Assembly (NCBI RefSeq): GCF_000027125.1
Contig: NC_017626.1
DNA from: Escherichia coli 042
GTDB lineage: Bacteria > Pseudomonadota > Gammaproteobacteria > Enterobacterales > Enterobacteriaceae
Strand: one strand, 5' to 3'
Length of the DNA: 64,000 bases
The translations under genes and the position numbers were made by a program. A model generated the notes under the pieces. The model was not told the DNA's origin, searched no databases, and saw only the letters and a program-made list of their open reading frames with translations. Below, one piece after another: positions 8,384 to 54,470 of this stretch. How positions within the stretch are numbered: the first letter of the stretch is position 1; every line of letters starts with the position of its first letter.

Positions 8384-8530
8384 ATGGCAAAGCCGATCAT
8401 CACGCTCAATGGCCTAAAAATCGTCATTATGTTGGGAATGCTGGTCATTATTCTCTGCGGTATCCGTTTTGCCGCCGAGATCATCGTGCCGTTTATTCTC
8501 GCATTATTTATTGCTGTTATATATAACTAA
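8384..8530 (+). pseudogene. tqsA: tqsA 5' fragment (codons 1–45) ending at the island junction
   Basis: Encodes [45 protein letters not shown] then IYN-stop from island DNA; remainder of tqsA resumes at 19546. Confidence 0.8.
8512..8520. repeat. attL core (TGCTGTTAT)
   Basis: Identical 9-mer at 19546..19554; lies at tqsA codons 44–46. Confidence 0.7.
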
Positions 8531-8591
8531 TTTCACTTAACGCATTGATTTAATTAAATGATTTGCACTACAAAAAGTGCCATAAATCGCA

Positions 8592-8650
8592 AAATGACTA
8601 CACCAGTGACTACACCGTTCGGTGCACTGTATGAAACAACGTGGAACAAA
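8592..8650. promoter_or_regulatory. arm-type repeat block (GACTACACC x2), homologous to block near attR
   Basis: atGACTACACCagtGACTACACCg plus shared flanking motifs, matching 19391..19460. Confidence 0.5.
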
Positions 8651-8929
8651 TAGACACAAGAAATATACAGGCGGGTCATCTTTCCAGGGGGAAGCGCGCT
8701 AATTCATGAGGGGCGTTAATGTTGATATGGGGATCCCCATAACGGGGCTACCGGATTTTTTTTCCGGTTAACTGTTAATCAGGCTGGTGGGCTTTACCTG
8801 TTTTGTAGGAGTGGTCATTATGACCATTCAGACAATGACCTTAATCAGAACTTTTCGCTAAAAAATGACGTTGGTCACGTCGTCCGGAAAGCACAAAATC
8901 CCGTCAATTTTTAATTAACGGTTAAACCG

Positions 8930-8990
8930 TCTTTTGTCACGGCGTGTCACTGGTTGTCACTCTCCGTCACGGTATGTCGCTACTCGTTAA
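8930..8990. repeat. helically phased TGTCAC/GTCAC array (about 5 copies)
   Basis: tgtcacggcgtgtcactggttgtcactctccgtcacggtatgtcgc, ~10–11 bp spacing; at 3' end of the leftmost island gene. Confidence 0.45.
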
Positions 8991-9268
8991 CGCCGTAACC
9001 GCTCCGGCTTCTTCCAGTGGTACGTAATTTTCTCCGTTTCCCGATACAGTGCCACGCGGCGATTGTAGGCCAGCATTTCAAGAACGCGGATCCGTATGTT
9101 GCGCATATCCACATCATTAAGCTGGATACCATCACGGCGCATCACCTCAGCAACCACACGCGCGTAATTTTCGGCGGTCACGCTGTCCGGCTGCGTGGCC
9201 TGTTCGTCATGCTGCTGGCTGATTCCGGTAACGCGGCGGATTAATCCCAGTAGTTCGGCTTCTGTCAT
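8987..9268 (-). CDS. hypothetical protein (93 aa)
   Basis: ORF 8987..9466 trimmed to Met MTEAELLG; upstream part of the track ORF is read-through of the cos repeat. Confidence 0.45.
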   Translation of the reverse strand: MTEAELLGLIRRVTGISQQHDEQATQPDSVTAENYARVVAEVMRRDGIQLNDVDMRNIRIRVLEMLAYNRRVALYRETEKITYHWKKPERLRR

Positions 9269-9301
9269 TGTGCCCCCATCGCTCTGATAGTCTGGTGTCG
9301 T

Positions 9302-9365
9302 CGGGTCCTTCCTGGAATTATGGCCCGTTACGGGGCGGCGACCTCGCGCGTTTTCACTATTTATG
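9302..9365 (+). other. lambda-type cos site, copy A (cosN GGGCGGCGACCT at 9333..9344)
   Basis: cgggtccttcc...gttacg|GGGCGGCGACCT|cgcgcgttttcactatttatgaaaattttt matches remembered lambda cosQ–cosN–left-end sequence. Confidence 0.75.
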
Positions 9366-9547
9366 AAAATTTTTCGGGATCCATGTCCGGTTTCTCTGCA
9401 AGTTAACCATATGAAAAATATAAAAACATGCTTTCCATGAACCGGACATGCGCAAAAAACAGACACTAAAACCGGACATCGAACCAGTTAACCGAAAGTG
9501 TGCACAAATCACATGCATTGCTGCGAGTGATTAACAAGTTATCGGCT

Positions 9548-9982
9548 TTACTGTTCTGTATCGGCTGATTGCTCCATGCTGGCACGGCGAACGCTTATGG
9601 CATGACGCCACCCAGCCAGAAAGCCAGCCATTTTATTTCGTGCCTTGCTCACATCTTCCGGTGAATAGCCGTAAATCTGCAAACCTTCATCAAATCGATG
9701 TTCTGTTTCTTCACTGGAGTACTCGTCACGCTCAGATGAAAGCAGCCTGGCAAACATAATTTTTTCCAGCGCACTGGTTTCTACGTGATATCTGATGGTC
9801 TCAAGACGGCTTTTACCTGAAGACCAAAGCAATGTATGCCCGATGTGATAACCGCCAGACTTTCCGCGATCCGCATTAAGATACGGCATCCCCTGTTTGG
9901 TCCATGCGCGAATAGTGGTTCTGTTAACCTTGAAATGTTCAGCTATTTCCTGCTGACTTACAAAACAAGCTTTATCAATCAT
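9548..9982 (-). CDS. Nu1-like small terminase homolog (N-terminal HTH); possible packaging-redirecting protein
   Basis: 144 aa; VSQQEIAEHFKVNRTTIRAWTKQGMP resembles lambda Nu1 VNKKQLADIFGASIRTIQNWQEQGMP; flanked by cos copies. Confidence 0.7.
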   Translation of the reverse strand: MIDKACFVSQQEIAEHFKVNRTTIRAWTKQGMPYLNADRGKSGGYHIGHTLLWSSGKSRLETIRYHVETSALEKIMFARLLSSERDEYSSEETEHRFDEGLQIYGYSPEDVSKARNKMAGFLAGWRHAISVRRASMEQSADTEQ

Positions 9983-10050
9983 AATGTTACCTTAACTGCA
10001 TGGTTAAATATTAATCAAGTGGTGGTGGTGTCACCTTCACGGAAAAACGT

Positions 10051-10114
10051 CATAAATAGCGAAAACCCGCGAGGTCGCCGCCCCGTAACGGGCCATAATT
10101 CCAGGAAGGACCCG
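10051..10114 (-). other. lambda-type cos site, copy B (cosN at 10072..10083), inverted relative to copy A
   Basis: Reverse complement is cgggtccttcctggaattatggcccgttacgGGGCGGCGACCTcgcgggttttcgctatttatg; ~90 bp upstream of the Nu1-like start. Confidence 0.75.
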
Positions 10115-10117
10115 TAA

Positions 10118-10138
10118 AAAAGCCGGATTTCTCCGGCC
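10118..10138 (-). terminator. rho-independent terminator after the 137-aa gene
   Basis: Minus strand gccggagaaatccggc followed by T-run; same hairpin recurs near 12390 and 12759. Confidence 0.6.
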
Positions 10139-10143
10139 TTGTC

Positions 10144-10557
10144 TCAGATGTTTTTCAGTATGCGATCGATGTCGCCGTCATCGCCCTGGTTTCTGCCATC
10201 GTATGCCATGCCAGCTGATACGGCTTGCGGGCTGTGCATGTCCATAAAGTTTTCAAAGGCTGCGGTAAGTTCCGGCGCAACCTTCGGACGTTCCTGCTCT
10301 ATGGTCATGCTAAGGATGCTTTTAGCCGTACCAACATCGATACAAGGCACGTTTGCCATTGCACGCAACAGCGGCTGATAGTCTTTATGCTCATGAAGCG
10401 CCATAATCGCATCAGCGCGCGGCTTGTCCTGCTCTTCCAGTTTGTTTAGTTGATGTACGGCCTCATAGGTTGATAAACCTCTGTCAGCCATTGCCCGCGC
10501 TTCGACTTTAAATTTACTCGCCAGCGGTAGCGTCATGATGCTTTCATTCGTTGCCAT
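10144..10557 (-). CDS. hypothetical protein (137 aa), last gene of capsid operon
   Basis: ORF; tightly packed after the gpD-like gene. Confidence 0.5.
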   Translation of the reverse strand: MATNESIMTLPLASKFKVEARAMADRGLSTYEAVHQLNKLEEQDKPRADAIMALHEHKDYQPLLRAMANVPCIDVGTAKSILSMTIEQERPKVAPELTAAFENFMDMHSPQAVSAGMAYDGRNQGDDGDIDRILKNI

Positions 10558-10569
10558 CGTTCCCCCTGC

Positions 10570-10905
10570 TTATCGGGCCAGCGGCTGAACGGATACGCCG
10601 GAACCCGCAAAGGCGGCGCATTTTTTCGCATCGGTGTCGACGCTCTCAGGCCAGTTAACGGCGGCAATATTGAATATCCCCGTCTTGTAACACTGTGCTG
10701 ATTTCTGCTTTGACGTGTCCACAGGGTACGAGGTCAGATAAACAGCCTTGCCAGATTCCTGACCATCCCACGGCTTAAACTCGCCATTGTCTGCCAGCAT
10801 CAGCGGGGTAAATTCCTGAATAACGCCAGCATCAGCGGCAAAATGTACCAACGTCGTGGATACCTGCTGACTGCCTGCAAATAACTCAATGTATGGAGTG
10901 TCCAT
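10570..10905 (-). CDS. head decoration protein, lambda gpD-like
   Basis: 111 aa; TPLMLADNGEFKPWDG...KTGIFNIAAVNWPESVDTDAKKCAAFAGSGVSVQ parallels lambda gpD (110 aa). Confidence 0.72.
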   Translation of the reverse strand: MDTPYIELFAGSQQVSTTLVHFAADAGVIQEFTPLMLADNGEFKPWDGQESGKAVYLTSYPVDTSKQKSAQCYKTGIFNIAAVNWPESVDTDAKKCAAFAGSGVSVQPLAR

Positions 10906-10917
10906 AGAATCCCCCCG

Positions 10918-11973
10918 TTAACCAATTTTGACGGTAACAAATTTGCGAATATCTGCCGGTACCGGCTGCGGTGCACTGTGTGTCTGCACGTACTCAATCG
11001 CCGGATCGCCGTCCTCAATCCAGTTTTTCGGGTAAAACATGTTTTGTGTTGCGCCCGTTCTTACCGCTTCCTGATCCATTATCGCACCATAGGCCACCAG
11101 CCCTTTATTGTTGGTGTTACCCAGGACCAGCAAATCAGGCTCAAGGAAATATTTTTCGGTACCATCGCTGTCAGTGTATTTGCCGGAATAGACGATAAGG
11201 GCCAGATCACCAAGATAGCCTTTAAAGCTCACCACTTCGCCCAGGTTTTTACAGGCCAGTTCGGCGGCGGATTCTGAACCACGGGAAAGATCGTACAGCT
11301 CACGGAATTTTTTAAAGCTGCGTAATGTGCGCCATACCTCAGCGCCCATAATCATGACGTTTGCGGGGCAACCAGCCTGATCAGCATAAAGCTCGATGTC
11401 ATAGATTGGGTCGTGCATGTCTTTATCCTGCTCGGACCATTTTTTACCCTTGGCCTGCTCTATGATGCAGTTTTCCGGTATTTTCCAGTCGATTTCATAG
11501 CGTTCTATGCCTTCGCCCTCAATGATGTTTTTTCCGGTCGTTACCGCATTCACCGCCAGCCATTCCACGCGTGCCTTAATGGCGTTTATCTGGCGGCGCA
11601 TGTTGCCAGTAATCAGGCGCATACGGCGATAGGTAGGGTCGTTAAGCTGTGCCGGATCTTCTCCAGCCATGCGCATGATGGTTTTCGTTGGATCGATTTC
11701 GTGCTTTGGCTTCATGTAGCCAGGTTTGATTGTGCTGGTTTCGTACCCTTTATCGCGCTGAACCTGGCTACCCACCATAGGCGAACAAAACGCCGACATG
11801 GTGACTTCTTCAATGTCCAGGGTATCCAGCATGATGTTTTGCGTGCTGAATGTCGCCACGTTCGGGAAAAACAGCGTGGTAAACAGAGGGCTGAATTTAA
11901 AATCCGCAATATCCCCGCGATTCAGGTACATGAAAAGCTGGTTAGTGTTAAGTGCCGTTGCTTTGCCTGCCAT
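10918..11973 (-). CDS. major capsid protein, lambda gpE family
   Basis: 351 aa (lambda gpE is 341 aa); adjacent to gpD-like gene. Confidence 0.75.
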   Translation of the reverse strand: MAGKATALNTNQLFMYLNRGDIADFKFSPLFTTLFFPNVATFSTQNIMLDTLDIEEVTMSAFCSPMVGSQVQRDKGYETSTIKPGYMKPKHEIDPTKTIMRMAGEDPAQLNDPTYRRMRLITGNMRRQINAIKARVEWLAVNAVTTGKNIIEGEGIERYEIDWKIPENCIIEQAKGKKWSEQDKDMHDPIYDIELYADQAGCPANVMIMGAEVWRTLRSFKKFRELYDLSRGSESAAELACKNLGEVVSFKGYLGDLALIVYSGKYTDSDGTEKYFLEPDLLVLGNTNNKGLVAYGAIMDQEAVRTGATQNMFYPKNWIEDGDPAIEYVQTHSAPQPVPADIRKFVTVKIG

Positions 11974-12212
11974 TATTCACCCCCATAATTTTTATGCATC
12001 CCAAGCGCCGCAAGTAAATAAGAGCGTACAAGTGAACCTATCGACGGCTCCGGCGTCATCAGCGGATCCAGTCCAGCCGCAACGCCAGCTTCATAGTTTT
12101 TTTTGTGGCGCTGCTTGAGCACCTCCACGATTTCGGGGCTTATGTACACCGAAACACCGCCTTTTTTCTCTTCAGCCATAGTAAGAAATTCCTCTTCGAC
12201 TAAAAAAATCAT
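11973..12212 (-). CDS. hypothetical protein (79 aa, or 68 aa from internal Met), first gene of capsid operon
   Basis: ORF; stop overlaps capsid start (ATGA). Confidence 0.45.
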   Translation of the reverse strand: MIFLVEEEFLTMAEEKKGGVSVYISPEIVEVLKQRHKKNYEAGVAAGLDPLMTPEPSIGSLVRSYLLAALGMHKNYGGE

Positions 12213-12235
12213 AACTGGATGTTTATCCAGTTATG
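12208..12235. promoter_or_regulatory. 12-bp inverted repeat (tcataactggat-gttt-atccagttatga) overlapping capsid-operon start codon
   Basis: Perfect 12-bp arms with 4-bp spacer; AT-rich region with further palindrome ttgcattttatgcaa just upstream. Confidence 0.5.
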
Positions 12236-12344
12236 ATTATAATCAGAATTGCATTTTATGCAATGATATTGAGTTATGTTGCAAATTATGAAATGATTAT
12301 CCCGATCACGAACGCCAGTGCATCCAAAAACCTCATATGCAAAA

Positions 12345-12410
12345 GCCCGATAAGAACCCTCTGACCTTATCGGGCTTTTTTTGGGCGCAAAAAAGCCGGA
12401 TTGCTCCGGC
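12345..12410. terminator. tandem hairpins (bidirectional terminator region, approximate)
   Basis: gcccgataag...cttatcgggc + T7, then aaaaaagccggattgctccggc. Confidence 0.55.
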
Positions 12411-12430
12411 TATGTGTGCTGTGTGCTGGC

Positions 12431-12655
12431 TCAGTCTCTGATCTCTTTCAGAAATTCTATCAATGCATCTATCTGTTCAGGATTTACCGCCAGCATTTCA
12501 CCGGATAGAGCACATCTCACAAAACCATGCTGATCCTTTTCAATCAGTGCGCCCGTCTCCAGGAATGCGCGGTAATCATTGATGCTCATCGTCTCCATGT
12601 TGTCAGCATGGTATTTATCACGCTGTTTTAATATCTCATCAAATTTCATCGGCAT
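12431..12655 (-). CDS. hypothetical protein (74 aa)
   Basis: ORF followed by terminator hairpin. Confidence 0.45.
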   Translation of the reverse strand: MPMKFDEILKQRDKYHADNMETMSINDYRAFLETGALIEKDQHGFVRCALSGEMLAVNPEQIDALIEFLKEIRD

Positions 12656-12758
12656 TGTTTTTTTCCTCTGTTGTGTCTGTTTGTTTCAGATAGTAACTAT
12701 GCCTGACCGTGACGAAAACCCGGTAATGCGCCATACCGTTTCAACTGGTGCAAAAAAA

Positions 12759-12774
12759 GCCGGATTTCTCCGGC
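12759..12774 (-). terminator. rho-independent terminator after PerC-like gene
   Basis: aaaaaaagccggatttctccggc. Confidence 0.6.
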
Positions 12775-12781
12775 TGTTTGA

Positions 12782-13054
12782 TTAGCTGTCCTGGTAATTG
12801 CGCCATATTTCATCACCAGCACCATCTATACCCATTTCGGCATAAGTGCGATCGACTGCCTTTTTCAGGTCTCCGAAATTATCCGGCGGCTCCGGTGCCC
12901 TCTGTGCCTTCCTTGAACATTCCAGCCGTCGCATCGTGATGTGATGCCGTTCCTTGTCTGTCTCCACCAGCTGCATGACTTCACCCCATCGCGCCGCCGC
13001 CCTCCGGTAAAAGCCTTTCGCCTCCAGTTCCTCCGCTATGCGGTCATGTACCAT
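12782..13054 (-). CDS. PerC-family transcriptional regulator-like protein
   Basis: ORF 12782..13174 trimmed to Met MVHDRIAEELEAKGFYRRAAARWGEVM, which resembles the PerC/Pch motif LExxGxWRRAAxRW. Confidence 0.55.
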   Translation of the reverse strand: MVHDRIAEELEAKGFYRRAAARWGEVMQLVETDKERHHITMRRLECSRKAQRAPEPPDNFGDLKKAVDRTYAEMGIDGAGDEIWRNYQDS

Positions 13055-13064
13055 CGTCACCCCC

Positions 13065-13475
13065 TCAGAACGAAATATCATCACCGTAAGGGTCATCGCC
13101 TCCCGCTGGTGGCTGATTACCCTGTGTGCCTGTGGTTTTGCGTCTGTTCCCGCCTGGACGTGCCGCGCGGGCACTGATTACGCTGTCTGCGATAACCTGC
13201 CAGCCCTGCCGCGTTTCTCCGTTCTGTCCGGTCCACTGGCTTACCTGCATCGTGCCGGATACGCTGGCAACATCGCCTTTTTGATGTTTAGCCAGGAAGT
13301 CGGCCTGTTTGCCAAATGCGATGACCGATAACCATAACGTCGCCTGTCCGTCCTGTGCCTGGCTGCATGGCAAAGATACCGCCATACGCGCCAGCGTCAT
13401 CGGTGTGCCCTTGCTGGTCTGTTTTACCTGCGGGTCGTCCACCAGCCGCCCGTAAGCGGCTATCTGTGCCGTCAT
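13065..13475 (-). CDS. ssb: single-stranded DNA-binding protein
   Basis: 136 aa; OB-fold segments parallel E. coli SSB; Gly/Pro-rich tail ending DDPYGDDISF (compare DFDDDIPF). Confidence 0.8.
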   Translation of the reverse strand: MTAQIAAYGRLVDDPQVKQTSKGTPMTLARMAVSLPCSQAQDGQATLWLSVIAFGKQADFLAKHQKGDVASVSGTMQVSQWTGQNGETRQGWQVIADSVISARAARPGGNRRKTTGTQGNQPPAGGDDPYGDDISF

Positions 13476-13753
13476 AATTCCACCTCTCCGGTTTTAACGT
13501 TGATGGTTGTTACCTGTTCCGCTTCGGCAATCTCCCGTTCTGTCAGCGTGGCAAAGTTTGCCGCCGCCGTGGTCATGAATGCGCTTATCAGGTCGGGATG
13601 TTCCTTCGCGTATCCTTCCCGCGTGTGGCGGTCTATCGTTCTGATTGCCACCTTTAAGGTGTGCTCAGTCATGTCTAACGCTTTATATTTTGGCTCTGTT
13701 CTGTCTCTGCGTTTTTGGGTCATTTCTCGCAACCTCTCACTTTTTCGCCTCAC
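13472..13753 (-). CDS. hypothetical protein (93 aa)
   Basis: ORF overlapping ssb start by 4 nt; 5' end overlaps iteron region. Confidence 0.4.
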   Translation of the reverse strand: MRRKSERLREMTQKRRDRTEPKYKALDMTEHTLKVAIRTIDRHTREGYAKEHPDLISAFMTTAAANFATLTEREIAEAEQVTTINVKTGEVEL

Positions 13754-13925
13754 TTTTTCAAGCGTCTCACTTCGTCGCAGTTGGGATTTTCGGTTTTTCT
13801 ATGTGTGTGTTTCATAAGTATTTTTTTACCCCTCACTTTTGAGGATGTATACAGGTCGAAAAGTGAGGGAGAGCGGGCTAATTTTGGCCCTCTTTCTATC
13901 CCCCTCGCTTTTGCTCCTCACTTTT
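13733..13925. repeat. candidate replication origin: CCTCACTTTT iterons (about 6 direct, 1 inverted) with AT-rich spacer
   Basis: Iterons at about 13733, 13748, 13764, 13829, 13859 (inverted), 13901, 13916; directly 3' of the replication ATPase gene. Confidence 0.6.
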
Positions 13926-15324
13926 ATAGCGGCGCTACATCATCCCCATCGATACGAATAACCCCATCTTTTTCCAGCTTGTACAGCCAGCGCCGGAAGT
14001 TTTTCATTTCATACCCCAGCTTTTTCATGTCATCACGTAACAGCGGGATCGTGCACTTGTCGCCGTTCTGTGTGCGTGAACGGATGCACCCCCATAGCGC
14101 GGTATGGTTTTCCGTCTTGTTCCCTGCCTCCTCGATGCGCTCCAGTTCAACAGGAGGGCGCGGATCATCCACCACCACCAGCGACGTGATTAATTCACCG
14201 TCAGCGTCGGTAAAAAGCTCCACCACGCGTAAGTCATATGCGGCTTCTTTGAGTTCCTCCGCGTCCTTCATTTTGGTGCATGAGATAACCAGCGCTTCGC
14301 TTCCTGCGTCCTCCCTGCGTATCCGGTATTCAGCATCCAGCGAAGCACGAAATGCACTGGAACCGCGCGCGCCTTTCGTCTCATCCTTGCCGGAATGGTG
14401 AACCACCAGCACCGTGGCCCCTGTGCGTCGTTTCAGTTCGTCACAACCACGGATAAACGCCCCCATATCACGGGAATCATTTTCATCATTCCCACCAAAG
14501 CAACGCGCCAGCGTATCCAGAATAATCATGCGTACAGGTTTACCCGTTTCCCGCTCCACCTGACGGGCAGCGATAACCATTTCATCAACATCAAGCGGGG
14601 CAGCCGGAAAGATGGGGCGGTTTACCAGATACAGATTTTTCACCTGCTCATCGTGCACAACCTCCCAGGCTTTTACACGACGCGGAACACCTATACCGCC
14701 TTCACCAACCACATAGAGAACCGCACCATGTGCAACCCTGCGGCCTCCCCACTGGCGACCAGTGGCAACATGGCACGCCCACGATCCAGCAAGGAATGAT
14801 TTATAGGACCCGCTAGCCCCGTATATGCTGCATAGCGATACCGCCGGAATAATCCCCTTAACCACGTAATCCAGTTGCGTGTCGTATCCGGTAGATCCAA
14901 CGCTCATCGGTAGCGTGGTTTTTCGCTGGTGTTTTTTTTCTTCCGCCGGCTCTTTCCCGCGCACCCGTTCCAGGTATTCGCGCCAGTTCTCCCGCATATG
15001 GCTGTGCATCCCTTCGGGGTAATAATTCGCATCAGTTACACCCGCCGCCGCCAGCTTGTGCGCAATGGCATTAATATTTGATGGCCTGATGTGGCCTGCC
15101 TTGTACAGCCGGACACAATAGCGCCCCTCGTCGATGATTCTCAGGTCTGCCAGTTCATCCAGTTGATCATCAGCCAGCACAACGGGAGGCACATTATCGC
15201 CAGCCAGTCGCCCGTCCTGTTCCTGCCACTGTTTCGCATGTGCCCAGGCATCACTACCCGCAAAAATAATGACTTCGGTCATCTTGTCGTAAGGCTGTTT
15301 TTTTAAGTTCGGTGCGCTTTTCAT
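13924..15324 (-). CDS. replication protein, RecA-fold ATPase / helicase-like (primase-replicase candidate)
   Basis: 466 aa; Walker A GASGSYKS, Walker B MIILDTLARCFGG, VLVVHHSGK motif typical of phage/plasmid RepA or DnaB-like ATPases. Confidence 0.75.
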   Translation of the reverse strand: MKSAPNLKKQPYDKMTEVIIFAGSDAWAHAKQWQEQDGRLAGDNVPPVVLADDQLDELADLRIIDEGRYCVRLYKAGHIRPSNINAIAHKLAAAGVTDANYYPEGMHSHMRENWREYLERVRGKEPAEEKKHQRKTTLPMSVGSTGYDTQLDYVVKGIIPAVSLCSIYGASGSYKSFLAGSWACHVATGRQWGGRRVAHGAVLYVVGEGGIGVPRRVKAWEVVHDEQVKNLYLVNRPIFPAAPLDVDEMVIAARQVERETGKPVRMIILDTLARCFGGNDENDSRDMGAFIRGCDELKRRTGATVLVVHHSGKDETKGARGSSAFRASLDAEYRIRREDAGSEALVISCTKMKDAEELKEAAYDLRVVELFTDADGELITSLVVVDDPRPPVELERIEEAGNKTENHTALWGCIRSRTQNGDKCTIPLLRDDMKKLGYEMKNFRRWLYKLEKDGVIRIDGDDVAPL

Positions 15325-15620
15325 TTCTTGCCCCTGAATCCGTTAACCATGGTTTTCAGCTTCTGGATGTTTGCCCGTGCCCTGGCGTTGCTGGTGGGCA
15401 CGTTATGCGGCGCGGTCTGTACCAGAGAAAAATCACGCCGGAACTGATAAACAGGCATCACGCAATCATATTCGTAACCTTCACGGCGGTAGGTTACGCG
15501 CCGTTCTTCCACGTCCTTAATCATTACCGTGCCGCCGTACTGGTCGCGGTAAATATCACCGCGCGTAAATTTAGGGTGAGTGTTGCCACTGGCAGTTAAG
15601 CCAGAATATTTAAGTTTCAT
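15321..15620 (-). CDS. hypothetical protein (99 aa)
   Basis: ORF overlapping rep start by 4 nt. Confidence 0.45.
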   Translation of the reverse strand: MKLKYSGLTASGNTHPKFTRGDIYRDQYGGTVMIKDVEERRVTYRREGYEYDCVMPVYQFRRDFSLVQTAPHNVPTSNARARANIQKLKTMVNGFRGKK

Positions 15621-15625
15621 TATTT

Positions 15626-15859
15626 TTATTCTCCGGTGTGCTGTTCTTTATATCTGTCGTGCAATAGATCTATTTCTTGCAGTTCCATTATTACAGGCTC
15701 AAGAAGCGTTATTAATGCTGTGGCAATTCTTGATTTTTGTTTGTCGCGTTCATTGTCGCCAAGTGTTTCAAGCCATATGCGCAATATTTCCATCATGTTT
15801 TCACTGTGAGAAAGTGCAAGAAATGCGCGGTCTATTGTTTGGTGGTAAATATCACGCAT
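15626..15859 (-). CDS. hypothetical protein (77 aa)
   Basis: ORF in operon context. Confidence 0.4.
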   Translation of the reverse strand: MRDIYHQTIDRAFLALSHSENMMEILRIWLETLGDNERDKQKSRIATALITLLEPVIMELQEIDLLHDRYKEQHTGE

Positions 15860-16319
15860 GGCTTACATCCTCAGGAAATTTTCTTCTATAACGCGCCTCT
15901 GCCACATATTCCGCATAATCGGCGGCGATATTCAGTACATCAAGCCCCGTTGATTTATATTCTCTCGTGGAAAGTAAGAAAAAAGCCGCTCTAATAAGTT
16001 CTGGCATTGACGAAAGCGCATCAGCCGCATCATCAGGAACGCCGGAAAATTCCTGTTTCAGGGAATTAAAACGATCATCACGCATAACCCCCCCCCCATT
16101 TTCACAATCAGCAATCAGGATAGCTTTGGCCTCATTCAGCGCCGTATCAGCACTAAATTGCATGACAGCCAGTGAGTGAGGAACGAAAGCACCGGCATAT
16201 TCTGTTTCGCTGGTGGCGTGCTTATGTGCCCTGTCCGCGATAACAGAAATATCAATCAGCGCGTGCATCAGCGTTTTGATGGCTTCGGCGGCTGCGTCCG
16301 GTGTGGTTTTATTGTGCAT
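15852..16319 (-). CDS. hypothetical protein (155 aa) containing a G10 homopolymer
   Basis: ORF; codons GGG-GGG-GGG at 16088..16097. Confidence 0.45.
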   Translation of the reverse strand: MHNKTTPDAAAEAIKTLMHALIDISVIADRAHKHATSETEYAGAFVPHSLAVMQFSADTALNEAKAILIADCENGGGVMRDDRFNSLKQEFSGVPDDAADALSSMPELIRAAFFLLSTREYKSTGLDVLNIAADYAEYVAEARYRRKFPEDVSHA

Positions 16320-16521
16320 AAAGCATCCCCTGAATATTCGTGTTAATCATTCCGGCACGTTTTGTGATTTCCTGTAATGATTCCCTTGTGGCGACAATTG
16401 CTTCATCTGGTAAGTGGTAATTACACACCACGCGACCTTTATCCACATTGACCAGTAGCTGCCCTGTGAATTTCTCACGAAACTGAATGCGGTTAAGGTC
16501 AGTAAGTGACAGATTAATCAT
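16309..16521 (-). CDS. hypothetical protein (about 70 aa from internal Met MINLSL)
   Basis: ORF 16309..16563 starts at GTG; ATG at 16521 is the likelier start. Confidence 0.4.
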   Translation of the reverse strand: MINLSLTDLNRIQFREKFTGQLLVNVDKGRVVCNYHLPDEAIVATRESLQEITKRAGMINTNIQGMLYAQ

Positions 16522-16711
16522 GGCGCACCTCCTGACGAATACGGGCGGCAAATACAGCAACACAACCGGACGGGCAACGGTTACGCGCTTCGCGTTCCGT
16601 CCAGGCGGTTACGTGGATGATTTGAGATTCTCCGGCACTCAGTGCCAGAAAACGCCACACAAAGGCCGTTTGTGTGTGTACAAGGTGTGGTATATGATTT
16701 ACAGCAACCAT
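16514..16711 (-). CDS. hypothetical small protein (about 65 aa), first gene leftward of regulatory region
   Basis: ORF 16514..16786 trimmed to Met MVAVNH. Confidence 0.3.
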   Translation of the reverse strand: MVAVNHIPHLVHTQTAFVWRFLALSAGESQIIHVTAWTEREARNRCPSGCVAVFAARIRQEVRHD

Positions 16712-16803
16712 AACGGCTCCTAGTTTACGTTGTTGGTTAGAAGCCCTGCGAGTGGTAACGACACTTGCGGGGCTTTGTCTTTTCATCGATTACCTTGATA
16801 AAG

Positions 16804-16884
16804 GTGTCAGCCACTATATTAGTAACGGGTGTCAGCCACGTCAATAGTGTTTTTCCGTTTTCTTGTGTGTATACTGTCAGCCAC
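16804..16884. promoter_or_regulatory. divergent regulatory region with three direct repeats GTCAGCCAC
   Basis: Repeats at 16806..16814, 16831..16839, 16876..16884; tatact box and aggaaa RBS precede the plus-strand small gene. Confidence 0.6.
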
Positions 16885-16905
16885 CTAATAACGAGGAAAT
16901 CAGAT

Positions 16906-17085
16906 ATGGCAACAAAAGCAGTTAATGCAAAATCCAAAAAGCTTGAGGCTCGAGTACCACACGCAATAGCTGATGCTGTAGAAAATTTAAAGGAAGATGG
17001 CGAAAGTACAGGGCAATTTATCGTTTCGGCACTTGAAGGCGAGATCAAACGCCGCCAGCGCCGCAAGGCCAAAGAATCAGAATAA
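16906..17085 (+). CDS. small ribbon-helix-helix-like DNA-binding protein (59 aa), candidate island regulator
   Basis: KKLEARVPHAIADAVENLKEDGESTGQFIVSALEGEI resembles Arc/CopG RHH; transcribed divergently from the leftward gene block. Confidence 0.5.
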   Translation: MATKAVNAKSKKLEARVPHAIADAVENLKEDGESTGQFIVSALEGEIKRRQRRKAKESE

Positions 17086-17127
17086 TCACTATCAGCGCCG
17101 TGGTGTGAGGTATTACGGCGCATTGCT

Positions 17128-17316
17128 ATGCAGGACAACACAATGACCGATAAAGAATTGACCAAAACATTATCACCGGCACGGAAAAGACGGCGCAGAA
17201 AGATAGAGCATGAATCAGAAAGATTCGCACCATGTGCTTTTGCCCTTGAGCAATTCCTTAAAGAGTACAGGGAAAAGCGCTCATTGCAGGTATGGCAACG
17301 AACTGAACCAGACTGA
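17128..17316 (+). CDS. hypothetical basic small protein (62 aa)
   Basis: ORF downstream of RHH gene; Arg/Lys-rich. Confidence 0.35.
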   Translation: MQDNTMTDKELTKTLSPARKRRRRKIEHESERFAPCAFALEQFLKEYREKRSLQVWQRTEPD

Positions 17317-17394
17317 TTGCATTGCCCACCAGCCTGATAGCGGCTATCATCCCCGTGCTTATGTTTGGGATCACACACACAAACGGCGCAGCGG

Positions 17395-17430
17395 GTTATC
17401 TGTTCAGAAAGGCGGCTCCATTTCGGGGCC
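17395..17430 (+). terminator. candidate terminator of the plus-strand pair (approximate)
   Basis: ggcggctccatttcggggccgc followed by tttttta. Confidence 0.45.
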
Positions 17431-17585
17431 GCTTTTTTTATACCTGAAAAACCCCAATTTTGTTGTTTTTCAGTTTCACCAGGGCGAACGAATCCCCGCC
17501 CACGTTCTGGCGTATATTCAATCTTCATGGTTATAGCTCTGTGTTCAGATGATTGATGTGTGGCGGCTGCGTGCCGCCAGCGTGA

Positions 17586-17774
17586 TTAATGAACTGCCTT
17601 GCAGCTATCCTTCCAGGCCAGAACCTCGGATAAAGACCAGCCAACGGAACGACCGCCAAGTTTACGACGTGATGGGAATTGTCCGGCCTTTTCCAGGCGG
17701 TAGCGACACGTACGGCTAAGGCCGGTTAGTTTTTCGCATTCTTTTTCACGTATAAACCGATCAGTGCTTAACAC
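17586..17774 (-). CDS. alpA: AlpA-family phage transcriptional regulator / excisionase-like
   Basis: 62 aa; LTGLSRTCRYRLEKAGQFPSRRKLGGRSVGWSLSEVLAW matches AlpA HTH pattern. Confidence 0.8.
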   Translation of the reverse strand: MLSTDRFIREKECEKLTGLSRTCRYRLEKAGQFPSRRKLGGRSVGWSLSEVLAWKDSCKAVH

Positions 17775-18140
17775 TATTGCCCCCCCTTTCGTTTCTTAAA
17801 GAGTCATCAGGTGTCTTATTGTGTCGTATTGTTCCCGCTAGAGTGATGAATGGCAAATATTGAGGATGTATGATTTACAGAAAATGAAACAGTAAGAATA
17901 AAATCTTTTAAATTCATGTTAATACAAAGGCATAAAATATTGTTTCATGCCTTTTTTCTCGCTCTTTAAAGAGTGATTCGCTAGTGTATAAAAAACCAGT
18001 GACACATTAAAAATCAGCCACTTATAAATCTGTATGCTTTTTCGCCTCTTGTTCGTGGTTGTTCCACATTGTTGCTCATTGTTGCACGTTGTATCTGTTC
18101 GCATATACAGTATGCGCATACTGAAAAAACACGAAAAAAA

Positions 18141-19370
18141 TTATTTTCTTCTGGCTACTGGTAGCGTGGTTACGTTTTCATGTGTTCCCGCCAGTATCCC
18201 TAACCGCTCCGTCCACATATCCAGCGCATTGCGTTTAGCATCCAGATAACGGGAATGATTATAAACTCGCTGCATTCCTGGCATCTGGTGGCCTGTAAGC
18301 TGCTCCACGACATGCGGATCAACGCCTAAATCGTTCAGCATGGTTGTAAAGGTGCGCCGGATGTCATGCAGTGACCAGTGAGGATGATTAAGCCTCCTGT
18401 GCGCTAATCTTCCATACTGCGATACGCTGGCCTCCTGTTTCACTTCCCCCAGCAATAAGCCCGTGTGCCTGTTCTGCTCCACCAGCTGCGTGACGAACGG
18501 CAGGATCGCTTCCGGTATGGGCCGGAATATTGCGACCTTCGTTTTGCTGTGCTCCTTCGGAACGGTCCATAGCATTTCCGTAAAATCCCACTCCCCGATC
18601 TCCGATAACCTCAGTTCTACCGTTCTGGCTCCGAAGACAATCAGGAGGCGGATTAACGCGACGTAGTAAGGGGAGAATATTTTTTTGTCCAGTGCCTGCA
18701 ATAATTCGCCAAGTTCTTTGTTACTTAAGACACGTTCGCTTATATCCGGTTTTTTCCCAACGTCCGCCACGTTCAGATCGTCCAGAACGTTGCTGATTGC
18801 ATAGCGCCGCCTACGGCAGAACTTAAGCGCCTGTTTGCACGCCTGTAGCACGAATCCGGCAGTAACAGGCGTTCGCTTTGCCACCTGGTCAAAACAGGCC
18901 AGCCAGTGCCGTAGCTCGCATTTATCCAGCGGCATAGCACCAATCTGCTGTATTACGTGATTATTAAGTCGCCTTTTCAGGGCGATATAATCCACGCGGT
19001 TTTCCTTTACGTAATACTCAAGCCAGTAGGTGAGCGCATCGCCAACCGTTACCGGCTTTAACGCTTCCTGTACGGTGTAATTAAGCTCATGACGTGGATT
19101 TTTCCCCTCTGCCAGCCATGCGCGACACTGGGCGGCTTTTTCCCTGGCTGATTTCAGGCTCAGATCAGGATAACTTCCCAGCTTAATGCGTTCGGGTCGT
19201 GTCTCCCTTCCCGTTCCGGCCCTGTATGTGAAATACCAGGTCAATTTCCCTGATGTTAAATATTTCACGCTCAGGTTTCCGCCATCACTATAAAACGTGT
19301 TTTTCTCCGCTGGCTTACCATGAAGTTTCCTTAGCAAGGTATCGCTCAGTTTGTTCATTGCTCTGCTCAC
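18141..19370 (-). CDS. int: tyrosine site-specific integrase (P4-like, N-terminal arm-binding domain)
   Basis: 409 aa; C-terminal HDIRRT...GHQ...VYNHSRY catalytic motifs; adjacent to attR. Confidence 0.9.
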   Translation of the reverse strand: MSRAMNKLSDTLLRKLHGKPAEKNTFYSDGGNLSVKYLTSGKLTWYFTYRAGTGRETRPERIKLGSYPDLSLKSAREKAAQCRAWLAEGKNPRHELNYTVQEALKPVTVGDALTYWLEYYVKENRVDYIALKRRLNNHVIQQIGAMPLDKCELRHWLACFDQVAKRTPVTAGFVLQACKQALKFCRRRRYAISNVLDDLNVADVGKKPDISERVLSNKELGELLQALDKKIFSPYYVALIRLLIVFGARTVELRLSEIGEWDFTEMLWTVPKEHSKTKVAIFRPIPEAILPFVTQLVEQNRHTGLLLGEVKQEASVSQYGRLAHRRLNHPHWSLHDIRRTFTTMLNDLGVDPHVVEQLTGHQMPGMQRVYNHSRYLDAKRNALDMWTERLGILAGTHENVTTLPVARRK

Positions 19371-19390
19371 GTTTTACCCCCTCTTTACGA

Positions 19391-19460
19391 AAAAGTGACT
19401 ACACCAGTGACTACACCGATCGTTGCACAAAGGGCTACAACGTGAAACAAGCTGGAACAA
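19391..19460. promoter_or_regulatory. arm-type repeat block (GACTACACC x2) between int start and attR
   Basis: gtGACTACACCagtGACTACACCg at 19397..19417, homologous to 8592..8650. Confidence 0.5.
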
Positions 19461-19545
19461 GGAAAATCACAAATCTGTTGATAATCAAAAACATAATGCA
19501 CAGCCTGAAACATTATGAAACAGCAAAAAACACCAAATGATAAAA

Positions 19546-19554
19546 TGCTGTTAT
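19546..19554. repeat. attR core (TGCTGTTAT)
   Basis: Identical to 8512..8520; in-frame stops TGA TAA immediately upstream. Confidence 0.7.
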
Positions 19555-20452
19555 TCTTAACCCGCTGGTGCAACACATGGTCCGCTGGCGAGTGCCGCGT
19601 GTACTGGCGGTGTCGATTTTGATGACCATCATCGTGATGGCGATGGTGTTGCTGTTAGCTTATCTGGGTTCCGCGCTCAACGAGTTGACGCGGACGTTAC
19701 CGCAATATCGCAACTCTATTATGACGCCGCTGCAAGCGATTGAACCGTTGTTGCAACGCGTAGGGATTGATGTCTCAGTTGACCAACTGGCGCATTACAT
19801 TGATCCGAACGCGGCGATGACGTTGCTCACCAACTTATTGACGCAGTTATCTAATGCCATGTCATCAATATTTTTATTGCTGCTGACGGTGCTGTTTATG
19901 CTGCTCGAAGTGCCACAATTGCCCGGAAAATTTCAGCAAATGATGGCGCGTCCGGTTGAAGGGATGGCGGCGATTCAGCGTGCGATTGACAGTGTTTCTC
20001 ATTATCTGGTGCTGAAAACAGCCATCAGCATCATCACCGGCCTGGTCGCCTGGGCGATGCTCGCCGCACTCGATGTTCGCTTCGCTTTTGTCTGGGGATT
20101 GCTGGCCTTTGCGCTTAATTACATCCCTAATATTGGTTCAGTTCTCGCAGCAATTCCCCCTATCGCTCAGGTACTGGTGTTTAATGGCTTCTACGAAGCG
20201 TTGTTGGTGCTGGCGGGATATCTGCTGATTAATCTGGTCTTCGGCAATATTCTGGAGCCGCGCATCATGGGACGTGGGCTGGGGCTTTCGACATTGGTGG
20301 TATTTTTGTCGTTGATTTTTTGGGGATGGTTGTTAGGACCGGTGGGTATGCTGCTTTCCGTGCCGTTGACAATTATTGTCAAAATTGCGCTTGAACAAAC
20401 AGCGGGAGGTCAAAGCATCGCCGTTCTGTTAAGCGATCTCAATAAAGAGTGA
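19546..20452 (+). pseudogene. tqsA: tqsA 3' portion (codons 44–344), separated from its start and promoter by the island
   Basis: In-frame continuation [14 protein letters not shown]...; track ORF 19568..20452 begins at an internal GTG. Confidence 0.8.

Positions 20453-51674: not shown

Positions 51675-54470
<2,796 letters not shown>

Follow-up and report, generated by a model that had tools for sequence, protein, structure and literature searches.

In a 64,000-nucleotide stretch of Escherichia coli 042 DNA (the window; contig NC_017626.1 of assembly GCF_000027125.1), we identify with high confidence the segment at positions 8512-19554 as the phage-inducible chromosomal island (PICI) EcCI042, or a copy with indistinguishable junctions, a member of the EcCICFT073 family whose own tyrosine integrase has inserted it at a core of 9 bp in codons 43-46 of tqsA, the gene of the autoinducer 2 (AI-2) exporter TqsA. 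The original prediction had proposed an ~11-kb helper-dependent satellite or PICI inserted in tqsA with a 9-bp repeat. The proposal holds, but its novelty was overrated: EcCI042, with the same attachment (att) core and the same tqsA site, belongs to the reference set of Fillol-Salom 2018. Element and site are already known and named, and the mechanism is established for the near-identical relative EcCICFT073.

The direct repeat TGCTGTTAT is 9 bp long. Its copies lie on the + strand at 8512-8520 (the attL core, at the element end distal to int) and at 19546-19554 (the attR core, found by repeat search and sequence reading), with a start-to-start spacing of 11,034 bp; positions and spacing agree with those predicted. 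The same 9-mer occurs four times in the window where 0.65 occurrences are expected, so the repeat by itself is weak evidence, and reconstruction of tqsA was therefore used as the decisive test. The left flank, a single repeat copy and the right flank were joined into a 283-bp empty site, which was searched against complete E. coli genomes and proved 100% identical to uninterrupted tqsA in many of them. The uninterrupted site is present in 5169 of 5426 complete genomes. The left junction of the window was found in 242 genomes and the right junction in 246, that is, about 245 occupied sites.

Joining 8384-8520 to 19555-20452 gives a frame that translates to the intact 344-aa TqsA. In it TGCTGTTAT begins with the last base of codon 43, takes in codons 44 and 45 and ends with the second base of codon 46; the codon 44/45 breakpoint first given was thus essentially right. 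As it stands in the window, the tqsA 5′ fragment (8384-8530, +) consists of codons 1-46 followed by YN* from element DNA, a 48-aa open reading frame (ORF) ending ...FIAVI-YN*. The 3′ fragment (19546-20452, +) holds codons 44-344 and has no start before GTG-51/ATG-54, because in-frame TGA and TAA precede the tqsA frame on the right side of the insertion. In a genome with the same junctions PGAP calls both pieces partial pseudogenes, the 5′ piece named 'pheromone autoinducer 2 transporter' and the 3′ piece marked 'missing N-terminus'. The predicted attP junction, 19554|8521, reads ...GATAAAATGCTGTTATATATAAC..., and the empty attB reads ...TTATTGCTGTTATTCTTAAC....

The island is flanked by mdtJI/ydgV and by pntBA, with no prophage, and its target is the chromosomal tqsA. 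Over its full length the window gave no RNA genes in either an Rfam or a tRNA scan, and no tRNA-type att site is involved. The promoter scan did no better than shuffles (12 found, 14 expected), and for this reason we claim no outward promoter into the tqsA 3′ fragment. The site had been called atypical. A gene-disrupting site is indeed unusual for integrative elements generally, but disruption of tqsA had been noted three times before: Flockhart 2011 placed a related element between ydgD and ydgG (= tqsA) in strain ED1a, Bobay 2013 reported tqsA disruption by integrated elements, and Mageeney 2020 listed Eco33.11.tqsA, Eco557.15.tqsA and Eco282.16.tqsA, found with TIGER, as gene-inactivating islands and named tqsA as a candidate for 'regulated gene integrity'.

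EcCI042 was described in E. coli 042 at FN554766.1:1832521-1843554, with a length of 11,034 bp, the core ATAACAGCA, the site tqsA, and rgdR and perC as accessory genes (Fillol-Salom 2018, ISME J, Table S1). The published core is the reverse complement of TGCTGTTAT. Mageeney 2023 published the attL (160 nt) and attR (154 nt) strings of EcCI042, and both are found exactly in the window, the attL string at 19451-19610 and the attR string at 8418-8571; the junction string of the other reference tqsA island, EcCIK1516, has no match in the window. The 405-aa length given for the EC042_1767 integrase fits the window ORF read from its first ATG. Length, att core, site, rgdR with perC, and 314 nt of junction sequence are therefore the same, and no difference was detected in these. 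Since RppA interference, helper-driven spread and regulator cargo are established for close relatives, no new principle arises from the window. What goes slightly beyond the literature is the proposed integrase retargeting, an arm-site geometry like that of helper-embedded PICIs (HE-PICIs), the exchange of late modules behind an identical integrase, and one locus with mixed ends.

For class membership we took the features of Gram-negative PICIs of the EcCICFT073 type from Fillol-Salom 2018. Such islands are discrete, att-bounded and ~10-15 kb long; this one measures 11,034 bp, its empty site reconstructs tqsA, and about 245 genomes share its junctions. They carry int and then alpA at one end with near-unidirectional genes; here nearly all genes are on the - strand, int and alpA stand at one end, and a unidirectional operon comes after them. 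They have their own replication initiator with an adjacent downstream origin of iterons, and so does this island. Genes for lysis, tail, portal and large terminase are absent from them; none of these, and no protease gene, turned up when 20 ORFs were scanned against PHROG, which bears out the predicted absence of large terminase, portal and tail genes and extends it to lysis. They hijack packaging with a helper-type cos and an Rpp protein, and two exact lambda cosN sites and RppA are present. Their att sites are moreover described as serving PICIs and not full temperate prophages; here eight places with an identical integrase were sampled among the ~245 occupied sites, and all eight are islands of the PICI or capsid-forming PICI (cf-PICI) type. 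The satellite/PICI class first proposed is supported by int and alpA at one end, the own replicon and the lambda-type cos sites, and profile scans and annotations agree with the gene content then listed (integrase, AlpA, replication ATPase with iterons, single-stranded DNA-binding protein (SSB), PerC, capsid and decoration proteins). The HE-PICI class was considered as well and rejected, the target being chromosomal tqsA without a flanking prophage.

The packaging genes lie at the end of the late operon. The rppA gene (redirecting phage packaging protein A; 9548-9982, -) encodes a 144-aa mimic of the DNA-binding domain of the small terminase subunit (TerS), 98.6% identical to the CFT073 protein at the same position; the window protein matches the RppC crystal structure 6hlk (E 4.5e-31) and is 30% identical to the N-terminus of lambda Nu1. 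The 'small terminase homolog' of the original prediction is thus TerS-like, as stated, and can be refined to RppA. The RppA of EcCICFT073, c1503 with 144 residues, forms a heterodimer with the TerS of the helper, prevents packaging of the phage and directs terminase to the island cosB instead (Fillol-Salom 2018, 2019). The gene is flanked by a 78-nt inverted repeat, 91% complementary, each arm of which includes an exact lambda cosN, GGGCGGCGACCT. Of the two cos copies, the one upstream of rppA is at 10037-10114 (-), with cosN at 10072-10083 (-); the downstream copy, inverted relative to it, is at 9302-9379 (+), with cosN at 9333-9344. The upstream copy is probably the functional 'cos1', because its order of cosN, cosB-like sequence and rppA mirrors cosN-cosB-nu1 in lambda.

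Upstream of this cassette are the genes of a lambda gpE-like major capsid protein (MCP; 351 aa, 10918-11973, -), which matches phrog_29 (E 1.5e-107), with 43% identity to lambda E and 96.6% to CFT073 c1499; of a lambda gpD-like head decoration protein (111 aa, 10570-10905, -), which matches phrog_49, is 36% identical to lambda D and has PF02924 on its relatives; and of p137, a conserved 137-aa protein (10144-10557, -; phrog_1999). The weak match of p137 to positions 496-567 of phrog_53 (E 5.8e-9) falls in the C-terminal (scaffold) part of head-protease families. p137 was also tried as a homolog of the lambda Nu3 scaffold or of FI; BLASTP found nothing, and Pfam and NCBIfam searches found nothing.

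The genes for capsid, decoration and a possibly scaffold-like protein speak for a cf-PICI, an island that assembles small capsids of its own and depends on the helper for tails alone; islands at the same site with an identical integrase (L008, L012 and L014) do carry the cf-PICI module. This reading is extremely unlikely for the present island, from which portal, protease, head-tail connector and large terminase genes are absent in the PHROG scans. The only structural or packaging classes among the 20 ORFs were capsid, decoration and a TerS-like helix-turn-helix protein, so that of the full cf-PICI head set only MCP, decoration and p137 are here.

A P4-like satellite dependent on a P2-type helper is hardly credible, even though the Arm-DNA-bind_3 architecture of the integrase is of the P4 type, the island encodes an AlpA/Vis-like regulator, and the related O-island OI-51 has been described as of 'P4 ancestry' (Flockhart 2011). 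Neither psu, delta or sid nor the alpha primase-helicase has a homolog among the PHROG matches, cosN is of the lambda and not of the P2 type, the capsid genes are lambda E/D-like, and PICIs and P4 are explicitly set apart in the literature (Fillol-Salom 2018).

How an EcCICFT073-type PICI moves has been worked out by experiment in EcCICFT073 itself, the model Gram-negative PICI (Fillol-Salom 2018, 2019), and the steps below are transferred from it; what can be read in the window is the precise and reversible insertion, the modules, the cos sites, the iterons and the near-identity of its proteins to ones that have been tested. In EcCICFT073, alpA is induced by the helper phages lambda and phi80 and by a lambdoid prophage resident in the strain, and AlpA in turn activates the island; int, alpA and pri are needed for its transfer, and of its two cos sites cos1 is required (Fillol-Salom 2018). 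The lambdoid prophage at icd in CFT073 is its reported helper region. By analogy, a lambdoid helper of the lambda/phi80 type would switch on alpA, and AlpA would activate the operon of the island. Int would excise the island, restoring tqsA, and the island would replicate from its own origin into concatemers. The RppA-TerS heterodimer would retarget terminase from the phage cosB to the island cos upstream of rppA, blocking phage packaging, and island DNA would be packaged in helper-made virions and then transferred.

Several points weigh against this assignment. The identity with EcCI042 is drawn from length, core and 314 nt of published junctions, not from a full-length comparison. The replication function is presumed, because the allele differs from the one tested in EcCICFT073. 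In EcCICFT073 the c1499 capsid and c1500 decoration genes have no detectable role, deletion of the capsid, decoration and p137 genes is without phenotype, and the DNA is found in phage-sized heads (Fillol-Salom 2018). Finally, a marked island, 'O42 1749::cat', gave no detectable transfer (<1) from strain 042 after mitomycin C with any of four recipients (Fillol-Salom 2018, Table 1). Either strain 042 offers no helper that suits the island, or the mobility of the island is below that of EcCICFT073.

Failure to transfer would also fit a decayed lambdoid prophage remnant that is no longer a functional mobile element. The lambda-type capsid and decoration genes, the lambda cosN and an Icd-like pseudogene in the early region point the same way, and relatives were formerly annotated as the cryptic prophage CP-933C/OI-51 (Flockhart 2011). 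We nevertheless regard a remnant as very unlikely. Hundreds of genomes, at two or more sites, keep this compact architecture with every main ORF intact. Over a block of 6.7 kb, identity to islands from unrelated lineages is 99.5%, which indicates recent exchange. The replicon is the island's own and is not lambdoid, the integration module is of the AlpA/P4 type, and the near-identical EcCICFT073 is experimentally mobile (Fillol-Salom 2018). For annotation, we label the region PICI EcCI042 (EcCICFT073 family), with tqsA as two restorable fragments, and not 'cryptic prophage'.

The integration module begins with the tyrosine integrase gene (18141-19370, -), of 409 aa from GTG or 405 aa from M5 (EC042_1767), which matches phrog_1 and PF13356, PF22022 and PF00589, corresponding to an Arm-DNA-bind_3, a central and a catalytic domain. 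The protein is 92% identical to the O157 integrase and 91% to the integrase at the phoQ site of CFT073. Next to it, alpA (62 aa, 17586-17774, -; phrog_2790, PF05930) is 93.5% identical to EcCICFT073 AlpA and would be the activator of the PICI cycle (function from Fillol-Salom 2018).

A repeat search found a doubled arm-type motif on the + strand near each end: ATGACTACACC-A-GTGACTACACC at 8594-8616, starting 78 bp from the core centre, and GTGACTACACC-A-GTGACTACACC at 19395-19417, ending 133 bp from the core centre. The first of these is presumed to be a binding site of the integrase arm domain. The corresponding distances in the phoQ type are about 80 and 131 bp (locus L001, 3056-3078 and 14032-14055), and HE-PICIs have a doubled motif at 81 and 132 bp that was described as unique to them (Mageeney 2023). 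HE-PICIs resemble the present island in their gene-disrupting integration, in the lack of a replacement sequence in attP, and in two co-oriented doubled motifs at about 80 and 132 bp; they differ in that their target is a prophage late gene rather than a chromosomal gene, and in their motif, TGTATTGC versus GTGACTACACC here.

We compared two tqsA-type integrases with two of the phoQ type, the latter pair including EcCICFT073. The two types are about 92% identical and have 29 fixed differences, 18 of which fall in the arm-binding domain, eight in the core-binding domain and three at the start of the catalytic domain. The arm motif is (A/T)T(T/G)A(A/C)CTACACC in the phoQ type and GTGACTACACC in the tqsA type, and ~20-30 bp around the core also differ. 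Arm-motif sequence thus co-varies with the integrase arm domain. This pattern points to an integrase that, at ~92% identity, was naturally redirected from phoQ to tqsA. The changes lie mostly in the arm- and core-binding domains, and the arm sites have changed correspondingly.

The replication module is centred on a RepA-like initiator/helicase of the AAA_25 type (466 aa, 13924-15324, -; PF13481 E 5e-43, phrog_2850, phrog_906), which shares only its N-terminal 122 aa (62% identity) with CFT073 Pri; four allelic variants of the replication protein have been reported in E. coli PICIs (Fillol-Salom 2018). Directly downstream of repA, the repeat families mark a replication origin at 13735-13925 with six iterons, AAAAGTGAGG, one of them inverted, a position that matches that of the origin in PICIs, where iterons lie downstream of the replication gene (Fillol-Salom 2018). 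Beyond the origin follow a conserved ORF of 83-93 aa (13472-13753, -; phrog_1231), SSB (136 aa, 13065-13475, -; phrog_44, PF00436), and a PerC-family transcriptional activator (90 aa, 12782-13054, -; phrog_994, phrog_10396, PF06069, and so named by PGAP), which is an accessory gene of EcCI042.

Upstream of repA is the other accessory gene, rgdR (DUF4222; 99 aa, 15321-15620, -), with RGD at residues 20-22 and 99% identity to the O157 protein. The latter, ECs1581/RgdR, likewise has 99 aa with RGD at 20-22, and in O157 it activates expression of the locus of enterocyte effacement/type III secretion system and represses motility (Flockhart 2011). Early small ORFs of 77, 155 and about 70-84 aa, plus an Icd-like protein, occupy 15626-16786 (-), as judged by PHROG matches, NF033153 (phage_ICD_like) and PGAP names. 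Two small divergent ORFs lie at 16906-17316 (+), a YlcI/YnfO-like one (59 aa, ending at 17085) and one of 62 aa (17128-17316); they match phrog_949 and phrog_21027, and the CFT073 and CFSAN067215 annotations agree. A 263-aa ORF on the - strand (16737-17528) overlaps both of these + strand ORFs. It has no family match in the PHROG scan, the stretch is an Icd-like pseudogene in relatives (PGAP), and the ORF is probably spurious or a pseudogene and not a real gene.

Three further conserved ORFs lie on the - strand. A 74-aa ORF (12431-12655; phrog_1957) is 100% identical in the O157 element, a small ORF of 68-79 aa upstream of the capsid gene (11973-12212; phrog_3255) is annotated in relatives, and the last gene of the late operon encodes a 93-aa protein (8987-9268) with no family match that is 91-100% identical in the CFT073, O157 and CFSAN067215 elements. 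A PADLOC search of ten island ORFs found no defence systems.

The fullest match at a single place in a record of the E. coli collection extends over no more than 86% of the element. EcCICFT073, at the roxA/ycfD-phoQ site of CFT073, has the same gene order, with 95.5% DNA identity in the late region and 95-99% identity of the late proteins; identities are 96.6% for MCP, 98.2% for decoration, 95.6% for p137, 98.6% for RppA, 98% for SSB, 93.5% for AlpA and 91% for Int. Both islands have two cos sites around rppA, RgdR and PerC. They differ in that EcCICFT073 is integrated at the phoQ 3′ end, with core AAATATGTCC, and the present island inside tqsA; EcCICFT073 has a D5_N primase of 584 aa in place of the 466-aa AAA_25 RepA-type protein, and the arm sites differ.

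The best whole-element matches are the islands of O55:H7 and O157:H7 (EcCIRM12579 / O-island 51, CP-933C, Sp7), which are located between phoQ and roxA and have a phoQ-type Int (92% identical; 94% DNA identity over the int region). They are 99.5% identical in DNA over 6.7 kb (window 10042-16783), a block that reaches from p137 through the early genes and includes RepA, RgdR, SSB, PerC, MCP and decoration. Their cassette between the cos copies encodes instead a different Rpp/TerS allele, a Nu1-like protein of 180 aa (PF07471) on unrelated DNA, where the present island has the 144-aa RppA. The tqsA island of CFSAN067215, on the other hand, is 98.2% identical in the int/att module and 97.5% in the late region, and has a primase-type replication module instead. 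The island is, by these comparisons, a mosaic, its replication/early block being as in the O157/O55 phoQ island and its int-att module and rppA cassette as in other tqsA islands.

The segment between the inverted cos copies (window 9378-10041 versus L001 3964-4755) behaves as an exchangeable cassette. A terminator hairpin, AAAAAAGCCGGAnnnCTCCGGC, is present in three copies, at 10113-10142, 12386-12415 and 12750-12779. Comparison with other islands places the homology breakpoints at 12381-12423, where the middle hairpin copy lies, and at 9378 and 10041, at the cos inverted repeats. Because breakpoints fall at the middle copy, the comparison suggests that the hairpin repeats may serve as points of module exchange.

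The cf-PICIs at tqsA (EcCIED1a-type, for example, 15-16 kb) have an identical 409-aa integrase, the same AlpA family, the tqsA site, RgdR and PerC, but their late module consists of an HK97-type capsid, protease, portal, connectors and HNH/terminase, not lambda E/D and RppA. In L008, L012 and L014 the identical integrase/AlpA module at tqsA stands with a complete cf-PICI head module (HK97-type capsid, S78 protease, portal, connectors and HNH). As an identical integrase carries either cf-PICI or lambda-type cargo, whole late modules have been exchanged behind one integration module.

Such islands matter through RppA interference with lambdoid phages and high-frequency spread with helpers, and through the regulators RgdR and PerC, which in pathogenic E. 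coli act on type III secretion and on motility. A further reading, raised by Mageeney 2020 as 'regulated gene integrity', is that the AI-2 exporter may be switched off and on reversibly as the island inserts and, induced by a helper, is excised. What is shown here is a clean, fully reversible disruption and a site common to several PICI and cf-PICI types with an identical integrase. The structural features of such genes (Mageeney 2020) are present: at least 50 N-terminal residues are separated, in-frame stops stand at both junctions, and the joined ORF is intact; regulatory use is only a candidate. We consider a switch unlikely on the whole; if it existed, AI-2 export would be in an off-state under phage control in about 4-5% of E. 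coli, with effects on biofilm and motility, in addition to the regulators RgdR and PerC that the island itself carries.

Two further loci are of structural interest. L009 (JBFCVG010000001.1), at tqsA and with the identical 409-aa integrase, is a decayed deletion derivative that has lost the origin, SSB, PerC and the capsid gene; at locus positions 14046-15737 an in-frame fusion joins its RepA-type and decoration genes into one of 563 aa with AAA_25 and HDPD. L015 (CP057500.1:567230-588459; junctions at locus positions 9817 and 20741) has a tqsA-type int end with core ATAACAGCA beside the tqsA 3′ fragment and pntB, and a far end of the phoQ type, with core GGACATATTT, adjoining phoQ. This pattern is as expected from recombination between two inverted resident PICIs, at tqsA and phoQ, which may have inverted ~0.5 Mb; it may also be a misassembly.

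Outside the island, the window is plain E. coli chromosome that runs from clcB to anmK and is collinear with other strains. Within it the rsxC coding region (53900-54423) contains internal tandem repeats, seen as offset self-alignments of 88-91% identity against another strain, an ordinary feature of rsxC.

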